Shown: positions 41,284-53,228 of the stretch, piece after piece
Numbering within the stretch: position 1 is the stretch's first letter
Layout of the letters: every line of letters starts with the position of its first letter
NCBI GenBank assembly: GCA_049724395.1
Contig: JAUGWO010000067.1
Span: 1-64,000 of the forward strand
Reading direction: 5' to 3'
DNA from: Spongospora subterranea f. sp. subterranea
Lineage: Eukaryota
DNA: 64,000 nucleotides
The notes under the pieces: generated by a model
The model's input: the letters and a program-made list of their open reading frames with translations, nothing else
Database searches by the model: none
What the model was told of the DNA's origin: nothing
Translations under genes and position numbers: made by a program

Positions 41284-44200
41284 TTAGCTTCGCTGGGTTC
41301 TCGATATACGTTGAACATTTTGAGTGATTGCTGACCAATCGATATGAAGATGGTCATTTGGTCCGCCTGCAGGGGGATCTAGAGCATTACATCGGACGAG
41401 ATAGGAGAGGTAGACACGGACTGAGAACAAACAGCCAAGTCAATTTACGAACGGAAACAAGCGGCGACTAACAGATTTTATCAAGAGAAGGAAACGGTAT
41501 CGATGAGTACCGCGTAACGTTGGTTCTATCTAGATGGAGAGAGTTCGCGAGATCATCAGCCCATGTTTCCGTAAGATGCGATATGACCGAAGCCAGGGGA
41601 TTGGACTCTGAAGTTGACAGCGACTGCAAAAGTGAGTGTCGCCACGTCGAATACGGTAAATTCGAAATCGAGAATCCTACAAATTTCGTTTAACCATTTA
41701 TAGACAAATTTGTATCCATACCATAGTCTTGGATTTGCTTGAACATTGACACAAACCGCATGGGTTTAGGGTTTGTTACATGAAATATAACAATTGTCTT
41801 CTTGGCAATTTAGCACTAGACCAATAACAGTTTTGGTAACGTAGTCCACAGGGCTGATATCGACGCTATGGTTTTGTCCTAGAAAAAAAGACGTTAGCAC
41901 ATTCATCTAACTATCAGAAACAACGTTACCTAGACCGAATTCCAAAAATGGACAAGAACCCAGTTGAACGCAGCCTGTAACTATAAATACATGATATATG
42001 GAGGTGTGCTACCTTACCTTGCACAAGTCTGACTAAAAAGTCGTCGCTATTCCAAACTCCGGTACGAGAATCGCCAGTAACATATCCAAGTCTATATATG
42101 CTCGCTATTCGTAGCACAATTCAGAATATTCCCGATACAAGTCAAAGAATAGCAACCTTTGATGCCTTTCTGTCGAGCTTTGGTCACAATCTGCTCTGCA
42201 ACCCATTTTGATTGCGCATACCCACCAGAAATTCCTAAAGTCTGGTACAGTTAGGCAAAGTAAATTCTCGCACATGGCGTAACCGACCGGTGCAGTCATT
42301 ACTCAGAGGAGACTCCATTATTGACGACGACTTAGCTAACGATTTCGTTAATGATGTATCGAGGACTGATGTCGTGCTGAGTGGCGTAGATATTAAAAGG
42401 AGGTTAATCAACAACAAATAATTATTAACCTGATATAATGAAACGGCTTCATCTTGGTGGTAAGTGATAATCTTAAAAGGGTTTTCGTAGCATCGACGTT
42501 CACTGGCCGTAATTTCGAGTACGGAAGAAGCCAATGAACAAAAGCGGCATTGTGAATAATCAAATTGATGTCTTTCGCCAGACTTGAAAACGCCTCCTAT
42601 TAGAGGTTTGGCCAATATTGGGCAGTCGGCATCCATCAAGAATATTTACCGGCGATAACCCCAGGTTGGGCTTCGAAAAGTCCGATAAAACAGGGACAAT
42701 ACGTTTTTCGAACTCAGACTTCCAGACAAGATGCGCTTGCAATGCTTGAACGATCCTGAATGATGTCAGTCAGCAGAATTTGGGTTAAATCTACAAAAAC
42801 AAACCTTAGTTTACCGGCGTCAATGGACGACGCCCGCACGGTACAATGTACAGTGATGGACGGATTGGTTGTTAAAATTTCTGCCAACAAGAAACATCCT
42901 ACAAACCCGGTCGCACCTGTCAACTAAATACGGATTTAAAGACATGCAGATGCCGAATCGGATAGCACAAAACGATACCAAAATATGTTCGATGAATTCA
43001 CGCTCGCCTGTTTCGCATGAAGGCGCATCTAATCCAGAGCACCAATCCAAATTGACCTCAGAAAGTAAATCCAATTGTCCTTGTCCGTCGCAAGGTCTCA
43101 CAGATTTGATAGCATCAAAAGAGTCAATCGCTTCAGACAGCTTCCGAATTGTTGGATTGAGAAACAATGTGTTCAAAGGAAGTGCCAGACCAAAAACTCG
43201 CGAAAGTTCTAATTTTGTAACAGTGAACCAGAGATATACACATATGAGAACAGGACAAAGCAGACCTAATGTGACACGGGTCGCCAAAAGACTGTGTCCA
43301 CCGCAATCAAAAAAATCTGCATCAATATCGACATTGCCGTCGTTTGGAACGAGTCTCGCCCAAACCCGTTCGACTTTCATTTCGGATTCGGAAAGAAACT
43401 CAACAGGCTTCTCGCCTGATGTCTGATTATCTGGAACGCGAAGCGCAAGGCGATTGATTTTCCCGTTCGGCGTCAACGGCATCGCCTGAATGATGTGTAT
43501 CTCGCTGGGGACCATGTAAACAGGTAAAGTGGCGCGAAGGAATGACCGCAAGTCTGCTTTGATATCATTCGAATCACGCTCTTCGTACCTCGTGGGCGCG
43601 ACCAACACGACAAACGATGCCAGGCGCTTATCTGTGGCCACAGCGAAATTTCATCAGTACCAAACCAAACTGTGCAAAGTTGAATGACCGTTGATGGAGT
43701 TACTGTCAACAACTATACTGACACACTCCTTGACCATCTCATGTTGTGCTAACCGAGCATTAATTTCGCCCAATTCAATTCGGAAGCCTCGTATTTTGAC
43801 CTGGATTGCATCGTAAGCATAAATTTGCAAAACACACAACGCGTTGACCTGGTCATCAGCACGACCTGAGCATTCGACCCATCCCTTGGAGTTATACCGA
43901 CCCAAATCCCCAGTGCGGTACCTACAGATGAATTCACATCAATATGTTATCGACGTTGCATAGCAAACGACACACATTCGGTCCCCAGGTGATGGGTTTT
44001 CCATAAACCAGTTATTCAGGAATTTTTCCAGGGATTGTTCTGGCAGGTTAAGATACCCTTGTGCGAGATGTGGAGAACGGACGTATATTTCACCGCGTTC
44101 ACCAATAGAAGCAAGCTTTCCTGCTGCGTTGACAATGATCATCTGGACGTCTTTCATTCCAATTCCAACTGGAACCACATCTTTGATAGTTGTTAAATCC

Positions 44201-47200
44201 TCAGGAACGATTAAATGTCCAACGGCGCGCTGGGTTTCCGTTGACCCATACATATTGATGCATTTAACATTGGGCGCAATGTGGCGCAAACGAGCGACAT
44301 CGGACTTGATCAAACAATCGCCCACAAAGAAGACAAGACGAAGTGACCTTATAGTAGAGCGGGTTGTGGCAGATGTTAATAATTGACCCATAGCGGGTGT
44401 CAAACAAGAAACACTAATGTTTGAATCGCGCATCCATTGAGATAATGAGCCATCGTAGATTGTGGATTCATTTGGAATGCAGATGCGAGCGCCAAAGAAT
44501 AAAGGCGTAAAGATATCCCGCTGAAGAGGATCATGGGCAATGCCAGAGCACATACTATGCAGCAAATTACTCAAGCGACAATGAAAGAACAATAAAATTC
44601 GACTAACCTAAACCGGTCCTCGGAACTGATGTTAAATGTGCTTTTCATCCATGGATAAAAATGAGTAAGCGGGCCATGACGTCCGCACACACCTTTTGGC
44701 AAACCGGTCGATCCGGAAGTGAAAGTCACTACAGCGATACTGTCCTGCGTTATACTCACGGGTGTCGCTGCGTCCCGGCAAATAGGGGAATTATTTTCAA
44801 CAGGAATACTGATAAAATCCATCGGATTACTGAGATCAGGCAGCGCGATCTTGATTTTGAGATTTAACTGCTGATCTAAGAACGAAGAAATCTCGTCTGG
44901 AACGGCGCCGGCTGCATCAATGGAAATCCAAACCGATGGACGCGCGATTTTCAAACAGGATATAATCCTGGACGGTGGATATTTAGGGTCCATCATCGTA
45001 AAAGAGGCTCCAGCTTTAAGGGTTCCCATTATTGCCCAAACCACCGATGCGCTTCGGTGTCCGTATATGGCAACGATATCGTCGGTCTTGACACCACTGA
45101 GTCTGAGCGTAGCAGATAGCCAAGATGAGCACATATATAGATGATGATAAGTAATATTAACACCTAAATCAACTAAGTAAATGAGAATTGAAAGAAACTA
45201 GTGTAATTACCCTCTGAAGATATAGCAACGCAGTGCGCATAGTATTTGGCATTGCGAGCGAAGATGTCTGTAATGGGACCAGGCCAAGAAGCATCTAAAG
45301 GTTCGGCTGGGTCCGGGATGAGGTTCTTCCATTGGTTGCTGATCAGATTGACGTCTAAAATTGAAGCATTTCTTTCGTTCGTGGAAACAACGTGACAAAC
45401 CGAATCGGCAAACTCCTGGATTGATTCTGGCAGATACACGCTCGGGTTATAATCAATGGTGACGGCGCCATCGGGCCAGATCCGAAGAGACACGTCAGCG
45501 TCGCCAATTGTTTCTCGAAAAAGACTTCTCAAGCTCAAATTTCGCTCAGCGATGAATTCGAAATGTGGTTTGAAGTCAACAGAATTGGTAAATCTAACAG
45601 GAAGCTCTTGATGTGACATGGTATTGAACCACTGCTCACAAACATGGTTAAACAAATCCTTCAGCGTCATCGTATCAGAAATATCAAACCGGAGCAGTGC
45701 TCTCTCTTCAAACGGACCAATAGAATGTTTCAGCGATGACCTTAAGAGCAATTAATACATGGATATGCATGCAATGACTCCTATACCTGTTCCTATGATC
45801 GATGTAGGTCCCCAATAGAAAATTTGGCTCCAAAGTACGCCGATAGAGGATAAGGACGGCAGCCGTGAGAACAAACATTTCGGGATTGGGGATAGCACAC
45901 ATCGCTTCAGGAACAACAACGGAGTACCGAATTCTCAGGGAACTACTAAAAATAGTGTTAATTCTAACAAATGCACGAAAACATGAACAAAAGTACCTTT
46001 CCGATTCACAAGCAGAAAGATCTCCAGGAAGCTGAATATTCAAAAGATCGCTTCCTGGTGTGCCGTCAGACAGAAGGTTTTCCCAATAAGCACGGTCGTC
46101 GAGTAAAAGGCGAAACTGAGGGTTGTCATTTTCGCGACCAGAGAGCATTCTTTCTATCTGCGTCGTTTGCCAGCAATCAAAGTTGAGATATCCAATGGAG
46201 AAAGGGATTGGTTCGGGATTGGTGATTTGGCTAAGCAGAATCGATGCCGATGTTTGATCCGCGATTGCAGGATGAACCGCAAGCGCGATATGCTGGTTGG
46301 AAAGAAGTATTTGGATGGGCAAACCAGTTGCGATGAGATCGTTCGCAGTTTTGACCGCACGCGCTGCAAAGTCGTGAAATGTAGTTTGGTCATTCAATAC
46401 CGCAACGGTTTCATCCGATGAAAATTCACCCGTCGGTCTGATCACGCGAACAATTCCCTCTGAATCAATCTGCGTGTTAAGAATGGGAAGGCGTTGGCAA
46501 ATCTGCCTGACTCGATCTACGACAGAAGACTGGAAAGCTGAGATTGGACTTTCTGATGGTATCTCCTGTAACTCGACGACAGGAATACGTTTTCCGGGGT
46601 TGTGAAAGTGATCGGGCACATCCACTTCCAATTTGATTGACAGGCCCTCGACACAGGAAGAATAAACCGCCTTCGCACGTGCCCAAACGAGATCATCCTC
46701 AGACGTAAATAAGTCAAGCAACAGCGGAGCCAGCTGAGAGCTGAATTGTTTACTGGTTTCAAGCGGAATCAGACTGGGGAGATTCGGGATGGCGATCAAA
46801 TCCAGTGGACAGCGTCCATTTTGAGCTTCAATCAACGTCTGAGTGGGCGCCGCAAAAAACGAGGATTTTTGATAGATCGGGAAGGGGTTTTGGGCAGATC
46901 CTGGCTCACAACTGATATCGACAATGACGGACAACCGCCGCGGTTCCGTCCTGATAATCTCATTCGTCAGCCACGGTGTCGCCAATGACGCATCGCCAGG
47001 GTTAATTCTGATAGCGTTCACGACGATATCAAAGTCGAGAAGTTCAGGAAAAGGCCCCCCTCGAGAAGTCTGTTCACGCGTCCAGGTAACCACGTCAAGG
47101 CCCAGAGAAGACGCGAAATCAACCGCTCCGGAACCACAACGGCCTTGGGCACCGATAATGCAGCACCGGGGCTTTTTCTGTGTGAATTGTTCTGCCATTT

Positions 47201-47904
47201 TTACAAGGGCTTCAACACAGTCCATCGTCAAGTTCTCATACATTGTGGCGGGCAACGAGGCACCGGGATATCGACATGCCAAGGCTTGACTCGACCAGGC
47301 GAATAATCCACTGGGAAATACAGTTAGATAACGGCAGGGTCAGATGCAACGGCAGTTGCATACGATGATAGTCCAATTGCTCCAGCAGTATACCCGAATG
47401 ATGCAAGACGATTGTTGGAGTCGTCGGTCAGGTATTCGAAGTCCAACAGAGAACCTCCGCCTCGGATGAACGGAAGCAGATTGCGCTGCCATTGGGGTTG
47501 ACGCTTGAATGAATGCGCGAAATAGGCGTGATCATGAACAAATTTATCAGGGAGAGGATGAGGCTGACGCAACCCGACAATCAAAACTGTTGTTGGGGCA
47601 GACTGATAGGAGTTTGGATCGACAAGAACACATCCGCAATCGAAAAACTCCTTGTCGGAGAATGCTCTTTCCACTGACCGTTCAACAAAAACCCTAGGCA
47701 ATGACGTGTGAGCGGGTTCCGCGTTTCGTAAAAACATTTCGAGTAGATTTACTTGATTCCGCGCTGGATCAGCAATGCAGTTGAATCCGGAGTCAAGGGC
47801 GACCTTCGATCCACTGAACGATGATCGGGCCGTGCACCTCGTGGGCATACGCTTTCCGACTCGGCCCTTAGCCAGATTCCTGTATAGCGCCCATCAGGTC
47901 GCAT
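41284..47904 (-). CDS. Fusion protein: Lys1-type saccharopine dehydrogenase domain + condensation-like domain + Lys2-type L-2-aminoadipate reductase (A-T-R)
   Basis: Lys1 motifs: [69 protein letters not shown]. Lys2 motifs: [75 protein letters not shown], carrier [13 protein letters not shown], reductase [36 protein letters not shown] 45708-47282 spans the Lys1/C junction with no stop. Confidence 0.92.
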
Positions 47905-48310
47905 GATCCGCTCTTGTTATCTATTAAACTGCACTGATTTCTGAGCAACCGTTCGGAGCGACCGCCTCTTCTATAGCCTGTGTCTCGACAGTAACTATCG
48001 CGAGAGCCATGCGGACTGGGCTGAACAACAGCCACAGTCAGGAATGGGCGACGTGTCGCCGCGTTGATCGCCCCACATTTACTCATGTCCATAACGTACT
48101 GCAAGTTCTATTTTTAATTACGGCAAAGTCGCCCCCCACTGTGGAGTGTGGACTCGCAACGAAATCGACCAACTCTGGAACTTTGGTGCAGTGTGGACAT
48201 TCCGAAGGAATCTCGAAAGTCCGACTGGTGAAATCGCCACGTGCAACATGTGAACTTTTTTTTCCGGAAAGCGGATGCAACGCCAATAGGTGGAATTTGA
48301 AAGGTTCAAA

Positions 48311-48986
48311 ATGGGGTTTCCTGATTTGAAGTTGATCTGCTGCGACCGGGTTGGGCGTGCTGAGCCAATTCGACTGGCTCTGCATATATCGGATATACCT
48401 TTCGAGGATGAACGTTTGTCAGACCAGGAATGGGAGTCGTTCAGACGGAAAACCCCATTCGGTACCTGCCCAATCATGACGGTTAACGGCACCCTTTATT
48501 CCCAGACAGCAGCGCTTCTTCGCTATGCCGGCTATATTGGGGGATTAGAGCCCAGCAACCCAATCCTTAGGCTCGCCGTCGATCAGATACTCGGCGGAGT
48601 GGATGACGTCGTCAACGCGCTGGTTCCGTCGATCCACGAAACGGACGCAGCTAAGAAAATGCAGCTGCGAACTGAGGCTTTAGAGACCCAGCTGCCACCT
48701 TACCTACAAGGGCTCGATAGCCTGGCCGGGCAGACCTCTGAAGGCTTCTCAGTTGGAAATCAACTAACAATTGCAGATTTATCCATATACAGTTTATTGA
48801 ACTGGTTCAAATCTGGTATGGCCTGTTTGCTGCCGATAGCATTGCTCTAACCCCCTAACCAAAGGCGAGATTGAAGGCTGTCCTCCAGAGGCAATTGACA
48901 TATACGCGAACCTGACAGCGGTTCACAAAATGGTCTCCAAGAAGCACGGCAAAGTCGCTGACTGGATCGCGGCGCATCGCCCTTAA
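48311..48986 (+). CDS. Glutathione S-transferase, sigma-like (2 exons)
   Basis: GRAEPIRLAL...FEDERL, TPFGTCP, SQTAALLRY, LTIADL. Divergent from the fusion gene across ~400 bp. Confidence 0.93.
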
Positions 48987-49483
48987 GCAGTTTTATCTGC
49001 TGGACAACGGAACCATGCAACGACCCTACGGTTCCCGTTGACTTCAAGAACGACGCCACCGGATGTCCAGTGTCATTTGAAAACCTGTTCAGTTATATCA
49101 CAACGTTATTAAAGCAAAACACAAACGGTTCAGTTATTCTGCGATACGTCGTCTCGTACAGCACCTACCCCTGCCGAGCTCGCGTTTACCCGATGGATAA
49201 TGAAAGGGATGTTAGAAAATACAACAGACATAGCCGACACGTTGTTTCGCGATGGCAGAACCGGAATTATAAACCCCAGCAGTTGAGCGAACAGATCCGC
49301 GGGCTTCGTGAGTTCAAAATAATGTTAGTCTATGTTAAAAGCGAACCGTGAGATCAGCTTTTTTTACCAACGTTTACGGTCGCGGAGTTTGTCGTTGGAA
49401 AAAAAAGTCCGTTCCGGTGTCCGCGCTTGGCGGTGAGAAGCCAGGGCCTGAGAGAAGTACGGCTTCATCACGTTGATCGAGTA

Positions 49484-51099
49484 ATGGAGGATTTTCCTCG
49501 TTGCTTCGTGAAATTCGCCGCCTTGAAGATTTGATCTCTGATGATACATTGAACATCAACGAGATCCCTAAATTATTGCAGATCTTAGACGACAATTTGC
49601 TTTCTTTCAATATCGCACTTACCGCAATACAATCTCTTCGCCGAGTTCTCTATTCCCGAGCAGCCGACAATGGCGTTTTGGTACATGAGACAAGCGACAA
49701 TGACGCGGTTCAATGGTTGCAGGCAAAACTAGATTTCTTCATCTCCCTTCTGCTGCGCTGTCTCCACGGCGAGGATGAACGGCTTCATGTTGTTGCAATT
49801 GATTCTTTGATGGATCTGGTCAGCGTGCAGTGCGACATCCGCTCACCCTTTCCTATCGATTTGTTTCTCCGGTTGATCCGCTCGTTGACTGCTAATTCAT
49901 CCATCGGCAAGGCTGGGCGAATGCACTTTCTGAAGGCCTACATGGCTGAGTTCGATGACATTCAATACTGGACCCTTCGAGCATTAAAACTGGCTCTCGA
50001 TGACGTCGATGTGACTCTTGCCAATGTTATTGAATATGACGAGGACGCCTGCTCAGATATGGTTTATGAAAACTCGACATTGATCTTAATCCAGTGCGAA
50101 GTCTTCGTGGGAAAAGAAGAAGAGGCATTATCAGGAAGGTATTTTTCATCTGCAAAAAAGCACGGAAAGGCTGCTCAAGCAAAGTCGCATTCTAACGCGC
50201 TAAATCGTGCATGGAAATCGTTGCTCTGCAGTGAAGATCTACCTCGTTCTTTGATCAAGCTCATACTGTCGAACATGAAGAGTGTGATCATCCCGTGCTT
50301 CAGAGAGCCGCTGATGCTTTGCGATTTTCTCACTGATTCATATCATCACGGTGGCGTCATCACGATTCTGGCGCTGGAAGGTGTATTTATCCTAATAACT
50401 GAACACAATCTCGACTATCCGGATTTCTACAACGATCTGTACGCGGTGTTGACGTCCAGCATTTTTCACGTTAAATATCGCGAACGATTTCTCACACTTG
50501 TTTGGAAATTTCTGCGTTCAAGTCACCTGCCATCATATCTTGTCGCAGCGTTTATCAAAAAGTTTGCCCGCCTTGCAATAACTGCTCCCCCCTCTGGCGC
50601 ATTATTCGCGCTCGCAATCATTTTCAATCTTCTGCGACGTTTTCCTTCATGTCGAGGTCTGCTGGATCGCAAGGTAAACATCGGTCGTTCATCAAAATCA
50701 TAGCCCCAGCTGATCAGTTTCGCAGGACGCGGAATCACCGAATGGCACCGATCCGTATATCGACTCCGAAAAGGTTCCCAAAATGTCAAATGCTATTGAC
50801 AGCAGCTTGTGGGAATTGGTAACTTTGAAATCCCATTATTGTCCAGAAGTCGCTCGTTTAGCATCAAATCTGGACCTCTCCGGTTTACCAATCGTTGATT
50901 TTGATCTAAATACCTATTCGTCGTTCACGTACGAAACGGTTGGTCTCGGAACGTCCCAGCTGTCTCGCTGTTGTTTAACCTGTTCCACCAGTTGATTGCT
51001 AAGCATAAATCGAAGCGTAGGAAGGTCACCATGGCGATCGAGGCCCCAAAGTCACTCTTTCCAAGTTCTCTTTGCGAATACTTTACCATGCCTGTATAA
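49484..51099 (+). CDS. NOC4: Nucleolar complex protein 4 (CBF/Mak21 domain); nearest ATG is out of frame by 1 nt
   Basis: PLMLCDFLTDSY..GG...LALEGVFILITEHNLDYPDFY..LY, KYRERF, SSHLPSYLVAAFIKKFARL, SSLWEL..L..HY.P.V. Confidence 0.92.
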
Positions 51100-51279
51100 A
51101 CTGTGTAGATTTTTTTTGTTGCCTTGTTTACCCATTTCGCTTCCGGAAAGAGGTTTCTGGTCAGAAAATTAGGTGGGCTGGGCTTCGAACTCTCTAGGCT
51201 ATGTTTGTTTTTGCAATGGCTTTGAACGCTGTGGTATTTACCTACAGACGCAGTATTGCCGACGACGCATGTCTCAGTC

Positions 51280-53228
51280 ATGTACAGTGCGCAGTGGGTT
51301 TCCCGGTTCCTTCTGCGTTACGTGCGCAAGCTGCTGCTGTCGTTTCACCTGGCTGGTACACGTTTCCACAGCGACGGCCGATGGGAGATGTCACAACTCC
51401 GTCTGTTATCGCCAAATATATACGAGAGAATCAATGTTAGCGGGGAAGTGCTCACACCCCGTCTGGTCGACAAGGTTCGCAGCGTCCTGAACGCGAAAGG
51501 ACCGAAGACCTGCCGTGACCTTGGACTGTCGGCGCAGCTCGAGTCGATCGAGCATGTCTCAAACGTCGACTTCAGTGCGCTTCCTGCTTTTGTCAAGGCG
51601 TCTTGTGACCCCCGTCTCGCCGAGCACGCCACTAACAAAGGCTGTAAATTCGCATGCTCTACGGTAACTGATCGTGTTTACCTGTGTGCTCTGATTTTGA
51701 AGTAAACTTGTCAGTCTTCGGTCACTACAGCATTGTCGAACGTTTATTTCGCTGTTGGGCAACATCGCCCAGTCGACACGTCGTACCTTTCGCCATGCTA
51801 CCGAAGATTGCCTAGAAAAATGACCTACGGTGCCAAACTCCCGGCGTCCATTCTCCTCCATCGCTCTTCAGACAAGTTATGGATGATGGATAATAACTCA
51901 ACACCATCTACAGCCGAAAGTCGCATTTTGATGGATTTGGGGAAATCCTTGGAGCATAAGTTAACTTTAGACCATGAATATTATGCCCGTCTTGTTTTGA
52001 AAAATGCAATTGTTGCGCCGCTTCCCGTTTCACAGCCTGGATCATCTGCTGATCTGTTCATCTCTCGACATGAATCTTTCGCTTTTACACAAATAGGAAA
52101 TATCATGGTTAGATCTCAATTGGATTGCTCTGATCCACTTCTTCCTCTTCCTAACCAGACGTTTGATCTCAAAACACGCGCCGTGGTTGCTGTGCGCCAC
52201 AATCTCTCAACCTATGAACAACATCTTGCCTATGAAATTTCCACATTAAAAGGAGAATTCAATTCTTTTGAAAGAGAACTTTACGACTTGTCCAGGACCG
52301 CGATGCTCAAATACTCATTTCAGGTCGGTGCTTGATATTTTGCAAATCTTTCTTCACACTCCTTTTAGGTACGCCTGGGAAGGATGCATGGGGTTTTTAT
52401 TGCATACCACAACACGAGCAAATTTTTCGGGTCGGTTATTTGGTTTTTATGATGATATCACATTAATTGACCTGAATATGGCACCATCTAGGTTCGAATA
52501 TCTTTCGCTTGAAGAAATGGATAGAATTCTCTTCGGAGATTCTCGTGCTGCTGATCGGATGTTCGACATTTCCGTCAAGTTGCTCGAAAGAATGCTATCC
52601 GAAATCGTGAATGATTTTTCCAATGAACAAGCGTTGAAGCTTACTTTTCGGGCTCCACAGTCACCACTGGGTTTGTCGACATGAAATTCTCAATTTTGAA
52701 ACACATTTTTTTATCTGTAATGATCAGGGCGTCTTCAGGTATACGTTGAACTAGACCCTCGGATGAGCGACAAATTGACAGAGGAAGAGCTTCACCGCCG
52801 CTTAAAAGATGAATTCGGATTAATTATGCCCGAGGGAGCCACTATTGGAGCGGCACAAACCAGATATGATGAATGTCTCAAGGAGAGCGAGCTTCAGGTA
52901 AACCATGCGGATTCATTATCGGTTTTGTTAAGAATTTGCTTAGTCGCAAGTTTCATATGACATTCTTCCACTTTATGAAAAAGCATCTGCAGGCAGATTA
53001 TTCCTCTATACCTTGAGCGTTGATAATTTTATCAATGGCAAGAAAATCGAGTCCCACAAGGATTGGCTGAGGTTGAGCAGTCCCAGATCGAAGCTCACAA
53101 CACAATATCGGTTTCTCAACGAAACGTCACTTGGTCCGTTATGCATCGCCAGAGAATACTGGTATGCGATGAAAGAAGGAGATCGAGATGGGAAAGACCA
53201 TGGACCCAGGCTTTTCATGTATAAATAA
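51280..53228 (+). CDS. PET127: Mitochondrial RNA-processing exonuclease Pet127-like (multi-exon)
   Basis: LGKSLEHKLT, MVRSQLDCSDP.LP..TFDLKTRAV..VR, SFERELYDL.R.AMLKYSFQVRLG.M.GVFIAYHNT...FGFEY.SLEEMD. Confidence 0.9.

Follow-up and report, generated by a model that had tools for sequence, protein, structure and literature searches.

The alpha-aminoadipate route to lysine uses the textbook enzymes Lys1, Lys2 and Lys9, whose active sites have been studied in depth. What K77, E78 and D319 of Lys1 do in detail (yeast numbering is used throughout) is taken here partly from general knowledge of the family, and it is a common rule for Rossmann folds that replacement of the acidic residue by Thr or Ser together with Arg marks a preference for NADP(H). 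In the passages of PMC8779187 that deal with Lys1, K77 and H96 are cited as acid–base residues and R18 and R131 as acting on the glutaryl carboxylates, and the Asp of Flammulina Lys1 equivalent to yeast D227 is located at the AMP ribose. The relevant part of PMC9490328 places Ser266-Arg267 of human LOR at the site of the yeast Asp, which explains the use of NADPH by this enzyme. Fungal Lys2, as outlined in sections of PMC7884236, has only a truncated piece (ADA) that resembles a condensation (C) domain and is needed for adenylation, and the idea published there is that this piece descends from the C domain of an elongation module. The locus described here, 47904-41288 on the minus strand of a 64,000-nt stretch of contig JAUGWO010000067.1 from Spongospora subterranea f. 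sp. subterranea (the whole stretch is referred to as the window), is one intron-rich, spliced gene, and its message carries both a Lys1-like head and a Lys2-type tail made of adenylation, carrier and reductase domains (A-T-R).

The domain order obtained from stop-to-stop frames and Pfam matches is AlaDH/PNT N-terminal, weak AlaDH/PNT C-terminal, AMP-binding, AMP-binding_C, PP-binding and NAD_binding_4. HMMER comparison of the head with yeast Lys1 gave an E-value of 2.4e-29 for the third exon (236 aa; 2q99/3ugk) and of 1.1e-20 for the second exon (3ugk), and Pfam AlaDh_PNT_N matched the head with 32.3 bits, so that the two lobes of the AlaDH/PNT fold are found together with significant similarity to Lys1. 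The head of the relative P0279 was modelled with a pLDDT of 94.6 and a TM score of 0.91 to 3UGK/3UH1, at 38% identity to yeast Lys1, and the head can be assigned with confidence to the Lys1 fold on the basis of this model. When Lys9-Lys1 fusion, Lys1-Lys9 fusion and plain Lys1 proteins were used as tblastn queries against the 64-kb window, the head itself was the sole match. It starts at the ATG at 47904; the preliminary description, made from the window sequence alone, had given its span as 46760..47580, which lies within the head but misses its upstream start, the full extent being 46660..47904 with two introns. The gene, the head and the positions of the head that bear on its function are as follows.

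41288..47904, minus strand: gene of about 1,830 codons, coding for a Lys1-like head, a degenerate condensation domain, and Lys2-type adenylation, carrier and thioester-reductase domains (tblastn, spliced contigs)
46660..47904, minus strand: Lys1-like head (saccharopine dehydrogenase / AlaDH-PNT fold) in three exons (matches to yeast Lys1 PDB entries, Pfam)
47812..47859, minus strand: stretch with a 12-residue insertion and a PRG motif, between the equivalents of E11 and R18 (alignment)
47803..47805, minus strand: Arg equivalent to yeast R18, kept (alignment, codon map)
47564..47569, minus strand: Arg-Gln in the place of yeast K77-E78 (HMMER alignment, codon map)
47513..47515, minus strand: His equivalent to yeast H96, kept (alignment, codon map)
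47408..47410, minus strand: Arg equivalent to yeast R131, kept (alignment, codon map)
47124..47153, minus strand: glycine-rich dinucleotide-binding loop (alignment; equivalent of G203 in 13/13 rows of the fused clade described below)
47076..47081, minus strand: Thr-Arg in the place of yeast D227-I228, predicted contact to the 2'-phosphate of NADP (alignment; human LOR precedent)
47013..47015, minus strand: Ala in the place of yeast C249 (alignment)
46782..46787, minus strand: Pro-Asn in the place of yeast D319-H320 (alignment)

The yeast numbering was counted along 3ugk (373 aa) and anchored by the C205S mutation at position 205, which gave K77, E78, H96, K99, E122, R131, D227, I228, D319 and H320. 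The numbers given in the preliminary description were correct by this count, and all of the minus-strand motif positions given there were confirmed by the HMMER alignments and codon coordinates. In the second exon, IIGLKE, FAHCYK, DLEFL and RRVAAFG of yeast are paired with IVGLRQ, FAHSFK, DFEYL and NRLASFG of the window. In the third exon, GRCGSGA is kept, the yeast stretch KWDIKETSRGGPF is replaced by the Thr-Arg stretch of the window, and SIDHLP reads AIPNLP. Compared with yeast Lys1, the head thus carries the substitutions K77R, E78Q, D227T/I228R, C249A, D319P and H320N, and retains R18, H96, K99, E122, R131 and the glycine loop. Carboxylate-binding R18 and R131 are both present; of the acid–base pair, H96 is present and K77 is replaced by Arg; Thr-Arg stands in place of the acidic D227 that serves the adenosine ribose of NAD, and Pro in place of Asp319 of the I-D-H/N-L-P motif. 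The 12-residue insertion before R18 is common to the relatives P0001, P0151 and P0156, and is not found in the alignment of P0279.

The frequency of each change was determined in a set of homologues. The third exon was searched against 1.84 billion cluster representatives, and the best 150 of the 669 matches at E ≤0.001 were used, along with additional proteins from three word-index searches and two cluster look-ups. The comparison set consisted of the 96 rows outside the fused clade that span H96 to P322; fragments shorter than this and the fusion protein P0266 were excluded. Lys is found at position 77 in 85/89 of these rows and Glu at position 78 in 76/89; H96 is His in 93/96, D319 is Asp in 92/96, and C249 is Cys in 70/96. 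An acidic residue stands at 227 in 71 of 95 rows, and positions 227/228 are occupied by a small residue and Arg or Lys in 22/96, all 22 of which have K77 and 20 of which have D319. Position 320 is His in 63/96 rows and Asn in 30/96. Judged from this survey, H320N and the NADP-type pair belong to the ordinary variation of the family, being found in 30 and 22 of the 96 homologues and there alongside the catalytic set, but the loss of K77 and D319 does not. The possibility that the substitutions of the head are common in ordinary Lys1 proteins, raised in the preliminary description, therefore holds for H320N and the NADP-type pair and fails for the K77 loss and D319P; the change from SIDHLP to AIPNLP had been listed there among the differences from yeast Lys1, and its H320N part is ordinary, Asn being also the residue of human LOR. 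The NADP-type pair combined with K77 was seen in P0012, P0056, P0061, P0143 and 18 other representatives, one of which, from the fungus Cercophora newfieldiana, is a paralogue that bears the name saccharopine dehydrogenase; by their sequences, these representatives may be NADP-dependent enzymes that are annotated as NAD-dependent.

Phylogenetic analysis revealed that the loss of K77 (8/8 rows) and D319P (14/14) mark one well-supported clade of fused proteins, which is monophyletic although its protist hosts are distant from each other. The clade was sampled by 14 rows, some of which are closely related to each other: the window, P0001, P0151, P0156, P0198, P0274, P0279, P0087 and six N-truncated rows (P0002, P0157, P0003, P0037, P0054 and P0169). 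It was recovered as monophyletic by FastTree with a support of 99 (105 rows) and by an IQ-TREE quick search with an SH-aLRT of 100 (100 rows). The named members are Phalansterium solitarium (Amoebozoa), Rigifila ramosa (CRuMs) and Paulinella micropora (Rhizaria), and the rest are metagenome or run assemblies. Complete fused open reading frames (ORFs) are present in the transcriptome record P0156 and the metagenome record P0279 (1927 aa); the transcriptome record P0003 is without the first lobe of the head. Two models of Paulinella micropora, P0087 and P0237 (records P018386 and P018385), have consecutive numbers and an identical overlap of about 18 residues, and jointly cover head, C, A, T and R; it looks like one fused gene was split by annotation. 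In the reductase tree, fused and unfused long forms are interleaved; among the short rows there are many from short contigs, which are perhaps truncated models.

Within the clade, position 77 is Arg in 7/8 rows and Gly in the remaining one (the P0279 lineage), and position 78 is variable (D3, A2, V1, Q1 and P1 in eight rows). Retained are R18 (6/6), H96 (10/10), K99 (9/10), E122 (9/10), R131 (10/10) and G203 (13/13). Residue 227 is Thr in seven rows, Gly in three, Arg in three and Ser in one, and is acidic in 0/14; R228, A249 and P319 are each found in 14/14, and position 320 is divided between Asn (7) and Thr (7). It had been asked in the preliminary description whether orthologs keep the Arg-Gln and Thr-Arg pairs: R77 is kept in 7/8 rows and R228 in all, but Q78 recurs in none of the other rows (1/8), E78 being unconstrained, and T227 is found in only half of the clade (7/14). 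The positions that separate the clade from the rest are 77, 78, 132 (Leu), one helix Cys, 249, 319 and one C-terminal position, and the scan for such positions revealed no new polar invariant residue in place of the lost ones. The term "rewired", which had been applied to this active site, is for that reason an overstatement, the changes specific to the clade being losses.

An ordinary NAD-dependent, lysine-forming Lys1 that is merely fused to Lys2 would account for the fold, for the 38% identity of P0279 to yeast Lys1, for the retention of H96, R18 and R131, and for the labels in the source records, where fragments of the clade heads are named saccharopine dehydrogenase (NAD+, L-lysine-forming). 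K77, E78, D227 and D319 are all replaced, however, and these states are fixed in the clade, which makes such an enzyme highly improbable and supports the earlier statement that the head is not an ordinary Lys1. Likewise, canonical Lys1 or LKR chemistry would be very unlikely to proceed without K77 and D319. When five full-length members are compared pairwise, the identity averages 48.3% in the head, 51.7% in A-T-R and 28.2% in the C-like domain. Since the value for the head is near to that for A-T-R, and the head model of P0279 is confident, there is evidence at the sequence level that the head is under strong constraint and is not decaying.

The relationship of the clade to its neighbours in the tree is less firmly placed. 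FastTree sets P0266, P0061 and P0143 beside it with a support of 95, and the support for this node in the IQ-TREE quick search is 13; the grouping of P0266 with the clade as one clade was not rejected (p-AU 0.875). A second type of Lys1-Lys2 fusion is represented by P0266 (Planoprotostelium fungivorum, 1767 aa), which is without the N-terminal half of the C domain. Its head has kept K77, E78, D227, I228 and D319, and has Asn at H96.

Regarding the cofactor, the small or hydroxyl residue followed by Arg at 227/228 that characterizes NADPH-type enzymes is present in the window as Thr-Arg. NADP(H) binding is likely because this pair is the same solution as the Ser-Arg of LOR and its Arg is invariant in the clade; by this analogy, the head is predicted to bind NADP(H) rather than NAD. 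The NADP(H) signature proposed in the preliminary description is thus credible, with R228 in 14/14 rows, position 227 never acidic and the Ser-Arg of LOR as precedent (in the part of PMC9490328 that treats this site), but it is not specific to the fusion, being found in 22/96 of the homologues.

The remaining part of the protein consists of a C-like domain and a Lys2-type module, the features of which are given below.

45211..46659, minus strand: condensation-like domain, with the C3 motif HPAIADQ at 46274-46254 (Pfam on the relative P0156, motif table)
43266..45163, minus strand: adenylation domain, with the carrier at its 3' end (Pfam AMP-binding, PP-binding)
44497..44547, minus strand: Lys2-type adenylation signature (alignment with L-aminoadipate-semialdehyde dehydrogenase proteins)
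43459..43461, minus strand: A10 Lys (codon map)
43291..43293, minus strand: carrier-domain serine (codon map)
41288..42923, minus strand: thioester-reductase domain, with GATGFVG at 42917-42897 and YAQSK at 42220-42206 (Pfam NAD_binding_4; TIGR01746 on relatives)

In the window, A3, the A10 Lys, the carrier Ser, GxxGxxG, YxxxK and the Lys2 A4 signature are all intact. In its Lys2-type A4 and A5 signatures, the window agrees with named L-aminoadipate-semialdehyde dehydrogenases and is unlike the bacterial rows of nonribosomal peptide synthetases (NRPS). NCBIfam TIGR03443 runs end to end over the last 1,300 residues of the relatives, with 1036.1 bits for P0156 (cut-off 1030.1) and 855.8 bits for P0001. 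From family membership, the A domain is predicted to activate alpha-aminoadipate, and the R domain to release its semialdehyde. Pfam Condensation matches P0156 over residues 397-856 with an E-value of 1.8e-45, that is, as a full-length condensation domain. Of the HHxxxDG motif of active C domains, the second, catalytic His is found in 0/24 long-form relatives, with or without a head; the first His of the C3 motif is present in 22/24 rows (45211-46659; P0156, P0207-P0243). Since fungal Lys2 has a truncated C-like ADA piece and the catalytic His is absent here, the protein is a long form of Lys2 and not a peptide-forming module. The presence of a full-length condensation-like domain in protist Lys2-type reductases fits the idea that ADA arose from a C domain.

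Based on these sequence comparisons, it is tentatively proposed that the head is an NADPH-dependent imine-reducing partner which acts on the alpha-aminoadipate semialdehyde of its own module. The Lys2-type A-T-R module would form this semialdehyde, and the head would reduce an imine of the aldehyde with NADPH. This imine could be the cyclic piperideine-6-carboxylate or the Schiff base formed with glutamate, the reduction of which would yield saccharopine, the product of Lys9. An analogy is provided by the glycine betaine reductase ATRR, in which an extra reductase works on the aldehyde. Imine reduction would fit the pattern of retention because the kept residues hold the carboxylates of saccharopine and the dinucleotide, and the lost ones serve the acid–base steps on a ketone or ketimine. 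It is rather doubtful whether the head is a Lys1-derived NADPH-dependent enzyme for the step that follows Lys2, converting semialdehyde and glutamate to saccharopine as a non-homologous stand-in for Lys9, or aminating the semialdehyde directly towards lysine; the fused protein would in that event be a channelled two-step enzyme in Rhizaria, Amoebozoa and CRuMs.

Several observations weigh against imine reduction by the head. The clade-specific changes are only losses (K77, E78, C249, D319), with no new polar invariant residue, and even a positive charge at position 77 seems dispensable, because the P0279 lineage has Gly there. Neither the direction of the reaction nor the cofactor explains why K77 and D319 were lost, since human LOR, which works reductively with NADPH, keeps both. 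By our own reasoning, the carbon to which hydride is transferred would lie two bonds away from that of Lys1. Finally, the H96N change in P0266, whose other catalytic residues are kept, fits a relaxed catalytic constraint after fusion.

It is nearly as likely, as an alternative already put forward in the preliminary description, that the head is a non-catalytic pseudo-dehydrogenase, which binds NADP(H) and a saccharopine-, lysine- or 2-oxoglutarate-like ligand and tunes or scaffolds the reductase, for instance as a sensor of end product or redox state. This would be in line with the loss of two nearly invariant family residues (Lys in 85/89 and Asp in 92/96 rows elsewhere, and both in human LOR), with the Gly allowed at 77, the unconstrained E78 and the lack of a new polar invariant residue, and with the retention of the binding residues and the dinucleotide loop. 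A different catalytic loss, H96N, has occurred in P0266, the grouping of which with the clade was not rejected (p-AU 0.875). Lysine inhibits alpha-aminoadipate reductase in Penicillium, a behaviour that a sensor could resemble. However, the head is conserved to nearly the same degree as A-T-R (48.3% and 51.7%) and far above the C-like domain (28.2%), strict R228 (14/14) and H96 (10/10) suit hydride chemistry at least equally well, and fused pathway domains are usually active enzymes.

An active NADPH dehydrogenase for another 2-oxo-dicarboxylate, which would make alpha-aminoadipate from 2-oxoadipate or carry out LKR-like opine synthesis with another amine, appears unlikely. The holders of the glutaryl carboxylate, R18 and R131 (roles as given in the Lys1 passages of PMC8779187), are retained, and the lysine-side residues E78 and D319 are gone. 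Stand-alone NADPH-type relatives with full catalytic sets exist (22/96), and a protein atlas points to clusters of N5-(carboxyethyl)ornithine synthase with a score of 0.86, which serves as a lead only. On the other hand, opine and amino-acid dehydrogenases of this fold use the very Lys and Asp that are missing, and both are found in LOR; alanine dehydrogenase uses the equivalent Lys and Asp, a D270A mutant being available as entry 2vhv. In addition, nothing in the sequence indicates 2-oxoadipate.

The structure of the gene was examined by tblastn and by contigs of sequencing runs. The long relatives P0001, P0151 and P0002 match 47877-41287 in collinear pieces. At least 15 GT..AG joints on the minus strand, which skip 47-59 bases, are present in contigs of runs X3, X7 and X8, and none of them in the DNA run X1; the label of X3, X7 and X8 as RNA is a guess, and the three runs have three different study codes. 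The pieces of one 5720-nt X3 contig span the head through the reductase domain. The contig joints, together with two introns deduced from consensus and reading frame (45786-45741 and 43265-43209), give 1,682 codons without a stop; the final exons and the stop (near 41288) were read by eye. The introns of the head and a base of doubtful status are listed here.

47694..47752, minus strand: intron 1, 59 nt, GTAAAT..CCTAG (joint 47692/47752, cut +1, in X3, X7 and X8; not in X1)
47311..47363, minus strand: intron 2, 53 nt, GTATGC..CCCAG (joint 47310/47364 in X3, X7 and X8)
41792, no strand assigned: extra base in the window relative to all four runs, X1, X3, X7 and X8 (contig comparison; frame read by eye)

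The 46-nt GT..AG intron 45786-45741 is required by frame and homology. The 5720-nt X3 contig reads through it and those of X7 and X8 end at 45738, near this intron, which may reflect a retained intron or the way the contigs were assembled. When base 41792 is dropped, the reductase frame continues in the pattern usual for these domains, and when it is kept, the frame breaks; this base is probably an assembly error in the window. In the part that corresponds to the Lys1 fold, the contigs of the four runs vary from the window at 47507 and 46944 only. The difference at 47507, seen in X1, X3, X7 and X8, affects a silent third base adjacent to the codon for K99. Window and contigs also differ at 46646/46647, both just behind the Lys1-like fold part. 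These single-base differences (47507, 46944 and 46646-46647) look like strain variation.

The extra base in the reductase part and the retained 46-nt intron in the X3 contig could suggest that the fusion and the substitutions are an artefact of assembly or gene modelling, or belong to a decaying pseudogene. This explanation is hardly credible, as spliced contigs of three runs with three study codes connect the head to the tail, the key codons are identical across all four runs, complete fused ORFs are found in other records, and 1,682 codons are open. The reads hence back the codons on which the preliminary description relied.

The neighbours of the gene (glutathione S-transferase, CBF/Mak21, Pet127, a MON1-like protein, lipoyl synthase and a DEAD helicase) are of housekeeping type. 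Those in the upstream flank, 48290-52335 on the plus strand, are the glutathione S-transferase, the CBF/Mak21 protein and the Pet127-like mitochondrial protein, with no tailoring enzymes or transporters of biosynthetic-cluster type among them. A secondary-metabolite NRPS cluster was considered and rejected because the neighbours are housekeeping genes and the C domain is without its catalytic His.

The full-text literature searches, whose coverage mostly excludes subscription journals, returned no paper on a fusion of Lys1-like, C, A, T and R domains. What is seen here is an old, conserved clade that joined a Lys1-derived domain to Lys2 and lost the Lys and Asp of the family. If the head is active, the saccharopine dehydrogenase scaffold would have been turned to other NADPH-dependent imine chemistry, and the pathway map would have to be revised for several groups of protists. 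If it is a sensor, it would show clearly that a pathway enzyme can be reused as the regulatory module of an NRPS-like reductase.

Compared with the described systems, the head shares with yeast Lys1 (PDB 2Q99/3UGK/3UH1) the fold, R18, H96, K99, E122, R131 and the GRCGSGA loop; the yeast enzyme is free-standing, whereas here the domain is the head of a C-A-T-R protein, with the substitutions given above and a 12-residue insertion. Human AASS LOR/LKR (PDB 8E8T/8E8U) is likewise a Lys1 homologue and, according to the section of PMC9490328 on its cofactor site, uses NADPH and has a hydroxyl residue followed by Arg (Ser266-Arg267). By profile alignment, LOR also has Asn at the H320 position, as does the window, but it retains the equivalents of K77, H96, K99, E122, R131 and D319, of which K77 and D319 are missing from the window, and its partner is a Lys9-type domain instead of a Lys2-type reductase. 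Fungal Lys2/NPS3 (ADA-A-T-R; TIGR03443) resembles the C-terminal 1,300 residues of the relatives and the Lys2 motifs of the window; it has a truncated ADA/C* (as presented in parts of PMC7884236) where a full-length condensation-like domain is found here, and the Lys1-like head is extra. Lys9, which follows Lys2 and uses NADPH to convert semialdehyde and glutamate to saccharopine, matches the head in proposed function only, its fold being unrelated (Pfam PF03435/PF16653, as in the Lys1-Lys9 fusion P0152). The glycine betaine reductase ATRR (A-T-R1-R2), in the portion of bioRxiv 10.1101/559534 that describes its domains, similarly combines A-T-R with an additional nicotinamide-dependent domain acting on the aldehyde; that domain, however, is a C-terminal short-chain reductase which makes the alcohol, whereas the additional domain of the Spongospora protein is N-terminal and of Lys1 type.

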